Assembly (NCBI GenBank): GCA_050239825.1
Contig: JBFXGO010000035.1
Location: 4,008 to 24,580 of the forward strand
From: a bacterium
GTDB taxonomy: Bacteria > Hydrothermota > 32-111
Reading direction: 5' to 3'
DNA: 20,573 nucleotides
The notes under the pieces are model-generated. The model was given only the letters and a program-made list of their open reading frames with translations, was not told the DNA's origin and searched no databases. A program made the translations under genes and the position numbers. This document shows positions 16,591 to 20,573 of the stretch, piece by piece. Numbering within the stretch: position 1 is the first letter of the stretch; every line of letters begins with the position of its first letter.

Positions 16591-17954
16591 AACAGTCGAT
16601 TTTCAGGATGTATGATGTGAGAGGAATCGCAGAGACCGAATTGAATGATAATGATGTATACCTCATCGGAAAGGCGTTTGGAACCTACATAAAGAGAAGG
16701 GGAGGGAAGAGCGTTGCATCCGGAATGGATGTGAGGCTGTCAAGCAGTAGAATAAAAACCGCATTCAACAGAGGAGTAATTGAGACAGGAGTCAATATTA
16801 TTGATGTGGGTGTCGTGACTACTCCAATGCTATATTACTCTGAGCATTTTTTCAAATGCGACGGAGGAATAATGGTCACGGGTTCCCATAATCCCATAGA
16901 GTACAATGGTTTGAAGATGGTTGACCCTGAAATAACAATATACGGAGACACAATCACTTCATTTTATGAAATGATAATGAAAAATGATTTTGAGAAGGGA
17001 CAGGGCGCTTTGAAGAATGTTTCAATAGACGAAGAGTATATAATGATGTGCGCTGAAAAGATTAAAATATCATCAAAACTTAGAGTTCTCGTCGACCCGG
17101 GAAACGGCACTGCGGGCCCTGTTGCTGAAAAGATCTTTAAAAAACTTGGAGTTTATGCTGACTTCATCAATAAGGAGAGGGACGGGAGGTTTCCCAACCA
17201 TCTTCCGGACCCGACAGTAATGGAATTCACAGAAGAACTCAGAAGCAAAACAAAGAGCGGAAAATATGACTGCGGAATTGGCTATGACGGAGATTGCGAC
17301 AGAATAGGGCTGATTGACGAAAACGGAGATATGGTCTTTGGCGACCAGATCCTCGGAATTCTCGCCAAAGATATGCTTTCAAGGAATAAGGGAGAGAAGG
17401 TTGTATTTGATGTCAAATGCTCTCAAGGCCTTGAAGAACTCATTTTAAAAGAGGGTGGCAAACCGATGATGCATAAGACAGGGCACTCCCTTTTGAAGAG
17501 AAAGATGAAGGAAGAAAAGGCGCTTCTTGCCGGAGAGATGAGCGGACACATGTTTTTCAATGAAAACTTCTTCGGATTTGATGACGGGTTATTTGCCTCA
17601 CTTCTTGTCCTGCGGATACTCTCCGAGAGAAAAATCAAACTGTCGGAACTTAAAAAGGAGATGCCTTATTATATTTCAACTCCTGAAATAAGAGTTGACA
17701 CTACAGAAGAAGATAAATTTACAATAGTTGACGAGATTGTGAAACACTATAAAAAGGAAGGATACAGAGTGATTGACATTGACGGTGCAAGAGTCTATTT
17801 TGACGGCGGCTGGGCTCTTGTAAGGGCTTCCAACACTCAGCCGATACTTGTGGTCAGATTTGAGGCAAAGACAAAAGAACAGATGGAGACAATAAGACAG
17901 AATGTCAGAGATGTACTCTCAAAATACAAATCGGTGGATTTAAGAAATGTATAA
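16587..17954 (+). CDS. Phosphomannomutase/phosphoglucomutase (alpha-D-phosphohexomutase)
   Basis: YDVRG, TGSHNP phosphoserine loop, DGDCDR metal loop, GEMSGH, RASNTQP; GTG start after AAGGAGGAG. Confidence 0.95.
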   Translation: MKQSIFRMYDVRGIAETELNDNDVYLIGKAFGTYIKRRGGKSVASGMDVRLSSSRIKTAFNRGVIETGVNIIDVGVVTTPMLYYSEHFFKCDGGIMVTGSHNPIEYNGLKMVDPEITIYGDTITSFYEMIMKNDFEKGQGALKNVSIDEEYIMMCAEKIKISSKLRVLVDPGNGTAGPVAEKIFKKLGVYADFINKERDGRFPNHLPDPTVMEFTEELRSKTKSGKYDCGIGYDGDCDRIGLIDENGDMVFGDQILGILAKDMLSRNKGEKVVFDVKCSQGLEELILKEGGKPMMHKTGHSLLKRKMKEEKALLAGEMSGHMFFNENFFGFDDGLFASLLVLRILSERKIKLSELKKEMPYYISTPEIRVDTTEEDKFTIVDEIVKHYKKEGYRVIDIDGARVYFDGGWALVRASNTQPILVVRFEAKTKEQMETIRQNVRDVLSKYKSVDLRNV

Positions 17955-18932: not shown

Positions 18933-19664
18933 ATGCCAGTTAAAAGAGTCAAAATCAAAAAATCTGAGATCAAGAGAGACAAGTTTGTTGATCGGATGTC
19001 ATTGGTGGCGCAGGATGTAAAGACAAACTGGAGAAAGTATTTCATAATACTCTCTGTTGTTGTGCTTGTCATAATGGGCGCAGTAATGCTGATAAACTCA
19101 AACAAGAAGCGCGGCGTTGAGGGTTTAGCTTCTCTTTCAGAAGCTACAGATGTTCTCTTTTCGGGAAATTACACAGAAGCAATAGAACTTTTAAATAATG
19201 TCAAATCAAACTACTTTGGAACGACAGCGGCAAAGAAAGCTGTCTATTTTATTGGTGTAGCTCAGTTAAATACAGGTAAGTTTGACGAAGCCGTAGTTAG
19301 CTTCAATCAGTTCATAAAGTCGAATACAGGCATAGAGGATATTAAAGCTGCCGCTTACATTGGTATAGGCAGAGCTTACGAAGGCAAGCAGAATATAGAC
19401 TCATCAATAATCGCTTATGACCTTGTGACTACAAAGTACCCGAAATCTGTTTACGCTCCAGAGGCGTATCTTTCATTAGGAAGAATGTATGAGTCAAAGT
19501 ATGAAGTGAATAAGGCGGTCGATTCCTATGAAAAGGTCATCTATCTGTATCCTGAATCTGATTATGCCGCACAGGCAGAATTTTATAAAAATATGCTTGA
19601 AGGAGCAATAGATCCATTGACGCAGATGCAGCAGGGAAAGATGCAGAGCGGAGAAGTCAAGTAA
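18933..19664 (+). CDS. Membrane-anchored tetratricopeptide repeat protein (YfgM-like architecture)
   Basis: Basic N-terminus, one TM helix (YFIILSVVVLVIMGAVMLI), TPR-like helices with YPKS/YPES turns; AAGGAG at 18922-18927. Confidence 0.82.
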   Translation: MPVKRVKIKKSEIKRDKFVDRMSLVAQDVKTNWRKYFIILSVVVLVIMGAVMLINSNKKRGVEGLASLSEATDVLFSGNYTEAIELLNNVKSNYFGTTAAKKAVYFIGVAQLNTGKFDEAVVSFNQFIKSNTGIEDIKAAAYIGIGRAYEGKQNIDSSIIAYDLVTTKYPKSVYAPEAYLSLGRMYESKYEVNKAVDSYEKVIYLYPESDYAAQAEFYKNMLEGAIDPLTQMQQGKMQSGEVK

Positions 19665-19693: not shown

Positions 19694-19721
19694 CCACCCG
19701 ATAAGGTATATTATGTAAAGA
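19694..19721 (+). other. dif-like XerC/XerD recombination site
   Basis: CCACCCGATAA-GGTATA-TTATGTAAAGA has the 11-6-11 layout with inner ATAA/TTAT dyad; compare E. coli GGTGCGCATAA-TGTATA-TTATGTTAAAT and the B. subtilis right arm TTATGTAAACT. Confidence 0.75.
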
Positions 19722-19725
19722 TGGA

Positions 19726-20091
19726 AGACCATCATTTACATAATATACTGACCCAAACAAGGGTAAATACAAAAGACCATCATTTACATAATATACTGAC
19801 AAACAAAATAGCAAAATCAAAAGACCATCATTTACATAATATACATACAATATCAAATTCAGAAACAATACATAATACACTGACAAACAAAGGGTTAAAT
19901 ACAAAAGACCATCATTTACATAATATACTCACCCAAACAAGGGTAAAATCAAAAAACAATCCTGAACATAATATACTCACCCAAACAAGGGTAAAATCAA
20001 AAAACCATCATTTACATAATATACATACAATATCAAATTCAGAAACAATACATAATATACTGACAAACAAAATAGCAAAATCAAAAAACCA
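19726..20091 (-). repeat. Array of 8 units (48/36 bp, 180-bp higher-order period), each with an inverted XerD-arm-like core
   Basis: ACATAATAYAC starts at 19738, 19786, 19834, 19870, 19918, 19966, 20014, 20050; on the minus strand it reads GTATATTATGT(AAATG). Confidence 0.9.
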
Positions 20092-20107
20092 TAAACCCGT
20101 AACTTCT

Positions 20108-20452
20108 TTTTACCAGCCCACCAGCTTACCAGCATACTGTTTTTCTTTCTTCAACTATCAACTATTAACTATAAACTCTCAACTCTTATTTTACCAGCCC
20201 ACCAACTTACCAGCATACTGTTTTTCTTTCTTCAACTATCAACTATTAACTATAAACTCTCAACTCTTATTTTACCAGCCCACTAACTTACCAGCATACT
20301 ATTTTTCTTTCTTCAACTATCAACTATTAACTATAAACTCTCAACTCTTATTTTACCAGCCCACCAGCTTACCAGCATACTGTTTTTCTTTCTTCAACTA
20401 TCAACTATTAACTATAAACTCTCAACTCTTATTTTACCAGCCCACTAACTTA
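20108..20452 (+). repeat. 81-bp tandem repeat, 4 full copies plus a 21-nt partial, with nested 8-mer and 7-mer subrepeats
   Basis: Units start at 20108, 20189, 20270, 20351, 20432; units 1 and 4 are identical, others differ at 1-3 positions. Confidence 0.97.
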
Positions 20453-20573
20453 TGATATCCTTTGCATCTCTTGCCAGCTGCTCCGACGGCAATTCCTATG
20501 TCATCTTTAAGGATCCGAAGGAGCTAATTATCATAGATGCCGGCATTTATTACAGAAAATTCAAAAACAGCCT
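20452..20573 (+). CDS. Metallo-beta-lactamase-fold hydrolase, YycJ/WalJ-like (5' part; runs off the window; absent from the ORF track)
   Basis: MISFASLASCSDGNSYVIFKDPKELIIIDAGIYYRKFKNS matches the LASGSxGN...IDAG N-terminal pattern; HxHxDH lies outside the window. Confidence 0.7.
   Translation, partial: MISFASLASCSDGNSYVIFKDPKELIIIDAGIYYRKFKNS

Follow-up and report, generated by a model that had tools for sequence, protein, structure and literature searches.

The dif site of the chromosome analysed here is accompanied, on its XerD side, by a tandem array of eight inverted XerD half-sites, each without a XerC arm, and the locus is the largest example seen of a recurrent architecture in which dif is paired with inverted half-sites. 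It resides in a 20,573-bp stretch of DNA (the window; G000:C60:4008-24580), the right edge of which is the end of the contig. The array exists, and its copy number of eight is a short-read assembly figure, with no contig bridging it. A palindromic duplication of the XerD arm may have seeded a minisatellite that now forms a XerD-only platform, similar to the XDS sites of B. subtilis, touching dif; this explanation is preferred tentatively, with a probability that we place a little below even.

The dif site and its array of XerD half-sites

The 28-mer at the centre of the locus has an 11-6-11 architecture, with a left arm that ends in the XerC-type GATAA and a XerD-type right arm (TTATGTAAA); its left arm is like the (A)CGTC[CT]GATAA and CCCGATAA arms found in relatives and in other phyla.

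19694-19721, plus strand: dif, with XerC arm CCACCCGATAA (19694-19704), centre GGTATA (19705-19710), and XerD arm TTATGTAAAGA (19711-19721)

A 19-base dif core, searched with up to two mismatches, has a single match in the 2.1-Mb source genome (G000), and among the six exact matches to a looser 12-base core only the site at 19694-19721 has a TATA-type centre. With the same tolerance, the 19-base core was found in 27 of the 41 genomes searched, including 12 of the 13 other genomes of the family. In G006, G010, and G013, family members for which long contigs are available, the cumulative GC-skew maximum falls 35, -100, and -18 bp, respectively, from the homologous site, and the skew peak of two more distant genomes lies -2.1 kb and +12 kb from it. 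The large genes of the window are all on the plus strand, with positive GC skew, and the cumulative G-C maximum of the window is at 19727, 6 bp past dif, with only 850 bp of repeats to its right, and the skew flip is not traceable in G000. As the sole full site in G000, kept in all but one of the other family genomes sampled and positioned at the skew peak in relatives, the 28-mer is, as far as can be read from sequence, the real dif of the chromosome at the replication terminus. An earlier sequence-only reading had called a 28-bp dif-like site of 11-6-11 layout at this position, and the unique core match, the family conservation, and the skew peak bear this out; the genome-wide search that it had proposed returned no better dif elsewhere, and the GC-skew comparison, likewise proposed there, agrees with the position of the site in the window and in the relatives. 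The dif arm is invariant within the family and hence offers no co-variation signal.

The machinery expected to act on such a site, the presence of which the sequence-only reading had left to be checked, is encoded in G000. XerD scores 340 bits, above the TIGR02225 cut-off, and a XerC-like paralogue next to trmFO reaches 296 bits, short of the 335 required by TIGR02224; FtsK has its gamma domain, and SMC, ScpA, and ScpB are all encoded. According to the pertinent passage of a review, the right half-site of dif is its conserved half and is bound by XerD/RipX (PMC5357621).

It is this half that is repeated next to dif, in the following units.

19725-20092, minus strand: array of inverted XerD half-site units, with a 48-bp period, 36-bp partial units, and a 180-bp higher-order repeat (from TRF and a table of the units)
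19735-19748, minus strand: half-site core 1, exact
19783-19796, minus strand: half-site core 2, exact
19831-19844, minus strand: half-site core 3, exact
19867-19880, minus strand: half-site core 4, degenerate, three mismatches, AATACATAATACAC
19915-19928, minus strand: half-site core 5, exact
19963-19976, minus strand: half-site core 6, degenerate, two mismatches
20011-20024, minus strand: half-site core 7, exact
20047-20060, minus strand: half-site core 8, degenerate, two mismatches
19706-19748, no strand assigned: palindrome in which the dif centre and XerD arm pair with inverted copy 1, with a 19-bp stem, one bulge, and a 4-nt loop (AAGA)

TRF places the 48-bp period across 19725-20024 and finds 1.9 copies of the 180-bp higher-order repeat, with 89% matches. 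The core of each unit is the 14-mer TTTACATAATATAC, the reverse complement of 5 nt of the dif centre and 9 nt of its right arm. With up to three mismatches allowed, the 14-mer has 10 matches in the window as compared with 2.40 ± 1.63 expected, a number reached in 0 of 100 shuffles; these comprise dif itself (minus strand, 19706-19719), five exact copies, three degenerate copies, and one unrelated match at 17403 with three mismatches. The exact copies read on the plus strand, and all eight copies lie on the XerD side of dif, in inverted orientation and without a XerC arm, the first core starting 13 nt past dif. Because unrelated, A/C-rich sequence (for example, GACCCAAACAA and GACAAACAAAA) occupies the position where a XerC arm would be, the copies are half-sites. 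The sequence-only reading had recognized both the eight inverted copies, five exact and three degenerate, and their lack of a XerC arm, and the mismatch search against shuffles and the unrelated sequence at the XerC position uphold the two claims; its core coordinates were 3 too high (the exact cores start at 19735, 19783, 19831, 19915, and 20011), and the gap that it gave between dif and the first core as 11 nt is corrected here to 13 nt.

The 14-mer is specific to the locus. A scan of the whole 2.1-Mb genome, another check proposed by that reading, found six exact copies, all of them at the dif locus, and the four one-mismatch matches elsewhere equal the four obtained with a reversed control, which is the chance level. 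No match outside the dif locus was found by blastn of the array unit against G000. The shorter 10-mer ATTATGTAAA has 17 further occurrences in G000 as compared with four for its control, on contigs that are not placeable on the chromosome. The palindrome formed by dif and copy 1 folds, as DNA, with -17.1 kcal/mol (z = -7.77), a value equalled in 0 of 200 shuffles, and the spacer between dif and copy 1 is palindromic itself.

The array is flanked by two genes, one on either side.

18933-19664, plus strand: YbgF/CpoB-like TPR lipoprotein gene, with Pfam TPR and YfiO matches; the last left-replichore gene before dif
20455-20573, plus strand: 5' end of an MBL-fold hydrolase gene, located by tblastn with the proteins of relatives and truncated by the contig end

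The YbgF-like gene scores 83 bits against TIGR02795, under the cut-off, and likewise precedes dif in two metagenome contigs of the same genus (L123 and L106). The MBL-fold gene follows dif in relatives and is complete in L123, L106, and a further locus, L153. In G000 it is split, with the first 39 codons at the end of C60 and the 3' part on the minus strand of another contig (C24:322 to about 830); beyond this part C24 continues into unrelated DNA, and C24 is probably chimeric near a dispersed element at C24:997.

Other repeats are present around the locus. A second tandem array (20108-20452; 81 bp × 4.3, 96% matches) lies directly upstream of the ATG of the MBL-fold gene, and pieces of its 81-bp unit occur at at least 15 other intergenic places in G000 (for example, the end of C37, and C30, C55, C63, C49, C28, and C8), forming a genome-wide repeat family. 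The 27-nt word GGGAGTATAATAAAAGTTGTGTAAAA, which contains a perfect TATAAT, has considerably more than a dozen occurrences in G000 (such as those at C24:997, C30:39608, C50:29387, and C55:937) and, judging by its sequence, looks like a dispersed promoter-like element. Eleven weak sigma-70-like promoters were called as compared with 5.1 ± 2.3 expected, all on the minus strand and inside repeats, and were rejected as a product of AT-rich composition. An Rfam scan gave two sub-threshold chance matches only.

Half-site arrays in relatives and in other phyla

The layout of dif followed by inverted half-site units, which the sequence-only reading had suggested looking for in related genomes, is present in all five sampled genomes of genera g1 (G000, G001, and G002) and g3 (G004 and G007) and in the metagenome contigs L106 and L123. 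Six sampled genomes of genera g4 and g5 possess dif and have no inverted half-site within 500 bp of it; putative remnants in g5, inverted arms with one or two mismatches downstream of dif, turned out to be AT-rich stretches inside a gene and were discarded. Throughout the phylum, the exact dif/inverted pair was found in 4 of 272 genomes, with no control matches, a search that missed G004 owing to a one-base variant. The gene order of the locus is the same as in the array-free relatives G005 and G009, in which dif is immediately upstream of the same MBL-fold gene.

The core caTTTACATAATATACt is common to the units of both genera, and the remainder of the unit has diverged; as the units were selected by their core, the unit-conservation profile is biased and uninformative on selection. 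The number, spacing, and sequence of the units vary between all strains seen. In G001, a forward XerD arm accompanies each of three exact cores, and at least six further units have a XerD arm mutated at three positions; these mutated units are themselves duplicated. G002 and L106 each carry one extra forward XerD arm without its centre.

Simpler versions of the architecture are found far outside this phylum. One genome per species was scanned, in 185,579 species genomes, for a 12-mer made up of the centre and XerD arm, followed after 4-34 nt by its reverse complement, which yielded 69 loci, 68 of them distinct. A XerC-type arm is present on exactly one side in 47 of these, on both sides in none, and on neither side in 21; the 47 species hence have a dif with its XerD arm repeated in inverted orientation 6-33 nt away. 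They include Desulfobacterota-type 'Deltaproteobacteria', Nitrospirae, Gemmatimonadota, Binatia, Zixibacteria, Calditrichaeota, Alphaproteobacteria, and a cultured member of the Bacillales. The palindrome extends into the XerC arm in 0 of the 47 (extension ≤3 nt), and in many of these loci the spacer is palindromic itself.

Further XerD-arm 9-mers occur in the flanks (about 1.5 kb) of 17 of the 47 loci, amounting to 28 sites as compared with two for a reversed control word, and almost all of them are on the XerD side and inverted relative to dif. Tandem sets were seen in Desulfobacterales, Binatia, Nitrospirae, Calditrichaeota, and an alphaproteobacterium: 3 × 23 bp in L054, 2 × 25 bp in L041, 2 × 89 bp in L063, 2 × 93 bp in L090, 2 × 63 bp in L102, and 2 × 161 bp in L049. 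The copied block in the tandem cases ends, as judged by eye, 3-5 nt into the centre, and these 3-5 nt are assumed to correspond to about the expected extent of XerD contact.

The single inverted arm is not stably kept in every lineage. Of the 96 genomes in the order to which one carrier belongs, 6 have the exact pair. From the single-match genomes of this order 40 sites were examined, of which 34 are dif-like, and in five of the 34 the same GC-rich hairpin precedes an inverted arm, which carries 1, 2, 2, 3, and 3 mismatches, respectively, a pattern that looks like neutral decay with the hairpin kept. The spacer of a Syntrophobacterales-like clade forms a GC-rich stem-loop in which compensatory changes are seen and which is bordered by GTAAA and TTTAC.

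Among cultured bacteria, Rummeliibacillus suwonensis (L057, G272) carries one inverted half-site, at a distance of 8 nt from dif. Of the six TTATTATGTAAA sites in this genome, five (C1:1389690-1516633) are no more than about 105 kb away from dif (1494710); they occur on both sides of it, and invariably on the opposite strand. From their sequence and placement, they look like an XDS-type cluster with uniform polarity.

Several XerD-arm-like arrangements of other kinds were also observed. L169, L171, and L172, from the order around G273, contain an inverted XerD-arm-like 11-mer with one or two mismatches upstream of dif, on the XerC side. Another palindromic pair of XerD arms is located at L068:2210-2300, 730 bp from dif, where CCGATAA followed by 8 nt precedes it to give a pseudo-dif with an over-long centre. 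In uncultured Bacilli, a perfect palindrome of 50 bp recurs several times per contig in L064/L065, L078, and L091, and its ends are the XerD-arm 12-mer; the palindromes of L064/L065 and L078 are not flanked by a XerC arm, and in L091 the ATAA test flagged one side. These palindromes may be a dispersed family of XerD-arm palindromes.

Origin of the array and competing explanations

The XerD-loading platform that the sequence-only reading had put forward remains the preferred, though hypothetical, explanation, and comparison of the carriers suggests a two-step origin for it. The XerD arm would first have been duplicated in inverted orientation across a short hairpin beside dif, as has occurred at dif in many phyla, and the distal arm of this palindrome would next have been multiplied in tandem, giving rise to a fast-evolving minisatellite. 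Each unit comprises an inverted XerD arm and the XerD-proximal 5 nt of the centre without a XerC arm, and each exact unit would be expected to bind a XerD monomer without XerC; because the XerC arm is missing from the units, no recombination core could form, and the eight sites would jointly hold XerD directly beside dif. By analogy with the XDS of B. subtilis, the platform would unload or stop SMC-ScpAB complexes that reach the terminus; alternatively, it may raise the local supply of XerD for dif or hinder FtsK arriving from the right chromosome arm. The platform reading has against it the sporadic occurrence of the architecture, the exact pair being present in 4 of 272 genomes in the phylum and 6 of 96 in an unrelated order, and the decay of the inverted arm in that order, which looks neutral; the amplification of mutated-arm units in G001 speaks against strict constraint.

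A wider proposal, possible but doubtful in our judgement, is that polar sets of XerD-only half-sites, inverted and on the XerD side, are a widespread and undescribed accessory element of dif, which would form a one-sided barrier of XerD where SMC-ScpAB, FtsK, or the last replication fork is unloaded or stalled precisely at dif. If this were true, the element would range from one copy, as in the 47 species, to eight, and the terminus would be a defined point rather than a region.

A third of the possible weight, at most, goes to the strongest alternative, namely that the array is a neutral by-product: a hairpin beside dif would have been extended into the XerD arm by intrastrand template switching and then amplified by slippage or unequal exchange, and XerD may bind the copies while nothing depends on it. 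Because in the 96-genome order the hairpin is kept while the arm decays, the simplest origin is one in which a pre-existing hairpin was extended into the XerD arm and the distal arm then multiplied in tandem; such an origin requires no function. The neutral reading is also favoured by the palindromic spacer here and in many of the 47 loci, the abundance of tandem and dispersed intergenic repeats in G000, the different unit number, spacing, and sequence in every strain seen, the amplified mutated units of G001, and the sporadic distribution. However, the same side, polarity, and similar copy boundary recur in several unrelated phyla, with the XerC arm entered in 0 of 47 loci, and exact cores persist over two genera despite the divergence of the unit flanks. 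Full neutrality is also hard to square with the B. subtilis precedent, and a sequence identical to the XerD arm is assumed to be occupied in vivo.

Transcription insulation is an improbable alternative to the XerD platform. According to this explanation, the hairpins would be (bidirectional) terminators shielding dif from convergent transcription, with no more than the A/U-rich tail supplied by the copied XerD arm. The GC-rich stem-loop of the Syntrophobacterales-like clade, with its compensatory changes, would fit such a role, as would, weakly, two terminator-like sites on the minus strand inside the units (19995-19976 and 19947-19928). In the window, however, only three terminator-like sites were called as compared with 0.9 ± 1.1 in shuffles, with no plus-strand call within the array, and the dif/copy-1 hairpin is AU-rich, has no U-tract following it, and was not called as a terminator. 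A terminator would also have no need to match the XerD arm exactly over 12-17 nt, or to be present in eight tandem copies.

The suggestion of the sequence-only reading that the copies are scars of repeated Xer-mediated events does not hold up well, and it is very improbable that mobile elements exploiting Xer (IMEX) repeatedly integrated at dif and were then lost. Integration by Xer at dif, as in the CTX and TLC models, leaves direct repeats that keep a XerC-type arm around foreign DNA. All eight copies, in contrast, are inverted and devoid of a XerC arm, the interval from dif to the MBL-fold gene is free of foreign genes, and the MBL-fold gene also follows dif in the array-free G005 and G009. 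In favour of such scars, dif is a known hot spot for the integration of these elements, and G002 and L106 have the extra forward XerD arm without its centre.

An assembly artefact of a short-read metagenome bin can be set aside almost entirely: the contig ends 120 bp past the repeats, the contigs of all five array-bearing genomes break in or shortly after the array, and no read-derived contig bridges it, but the locus is spanned by two independent metagenome contigs, L106 (3025 bp) and L123 (4187 bp), on each of which the TPR gene, dif, three units, other repeats, and a complete MBL-fold gene follow one another (with a convergent gene next in L123). In addition, G001:C100 covers the right-hand side of the locus, and among the Logan contigs of run X1 no piece of the array is missing, at a depth of 10-18 as compared with 18.5 for the flank. 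L106 and L123 came from a metagenome scan with a 20-mer from the unit, in which 2 of 22 loci represent the locus and the other 20 are unrelated genes. What runs X2-X4 contain is fragmentary and derives for the most part from the adjacent 81-bp repeat family, and none of the four runs has a bridging contig.

Relation to known XerD sites and implications

The closest known counterparts of the array are the XDS, XerD-specific binding sites that were reportedly described by Karaboja et al. in 2021 in the terminus region of B. subtilis and S. aureus. To our knowledge, XDS function has been demonstrated only in Firmicutes. The XDS resemble the array in being dif-like sites at the terminus that keep the XerD arm and have no XerC arm, in a genome with XerD and Smc-ScpAB. 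They are, however, single sites scattered over the terminus region, like the five TTATTATGTAAA sites that extend over about 210 kb in Rummeliibacillus suwonensis, which served as a Bacillales control, whereas the units described here are in tandem, abut dif (13 nt), and are inverted on its XerD side, with the first unit forming a palindrome with dif; and XerD binding and SMC unloading are known for the XDS, whereas the array is known from its sequence, in a lineage far from the Firmicutes. In B. subtilis, as excerpts of two reports state, XerD unloads Smc-ScpAB at XDS, and an engineered XDS array, which is reported to stop Smc-ScpAB, forms a boundary (PMC11840125, PMC11894783).

The dif sites of E. 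coli and of B. subtilis (Bsdif) share with the site described here the 11-6-11 layout, the conserved right (XerD) arm, the single full copy, and the position at the skew switch. In the portion of the review that deals with it, dif is a 28-bp core without flanking half-site repeats (PMC5357621), whereas here a half-site array is attached. The forked attP hairpin of CTXφ-type phages and IMEX sites likewise place inverted, dif-like, hairpin-capable sequence next to dif; the CTXφ-type hairpin, however, has both arms and is followed by phage genes, whereas no copy in the array has a XerC arm and no foreign genes are present. The accessory DNA of the plasmid sites cer and psi binds PepA, ArgR, or ArcA, not Xer proteins, and sits beside the XerC arm; the array units, unlike these accessory sequences, are XerD-arm copies on the XerD side. 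What the array has in common with cer and psi, as outlined in part of the same review, is the presence, adjacent to a XerCD core, of DNA outside the core with a possible influence on recombination (PMC5357621).

A possible functional analogue is the matS/MatP system of enterobacteria, in which, as noted in part of one report, terminus-specific sites displace the SMC complex (PMC11894783); its protein and motif are unrelated, and matS is dispersed over the Ter macrodomain. The inverted repeats at the Lactobacillus terminus, given as 38-76 kb in the corresponding excerpt (PMC5345009), are of another scale and a different thing.

A search of the literature, mostly outside subscription journals, found no description of natural inverted XerD half-sites on a chromosomal dif, whether single or tandem. 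The array resembles known XerD-only sites, and its tandem form at dif is apparently undescribed. The sequence-only reading had known of no described array of this kind, which agrees with the literature searched; the layout itself is not unique, as it is found with one copy in 47 species and with two or three copies in several lineages.

Two Firmicutes, in both of which the sites are scattered, are known to use XerD for the removal of SMC at the terminus. A tandem array at dif in a distant phylum, together with the simpler versions elsewhere, would, if functional, suggest that XerD-only sites belong in general to the organisation of the terminus and are evolvable. If the arrays are neutral, they would record a recurrent mutational process, palindrome extension followed by arm amplification, at a highly conserved site of the chromosome. 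In either case the arrays are compact natural test objects, and Rummeliibacillus suwonensis offers a cultured carrier of the one-copy form.
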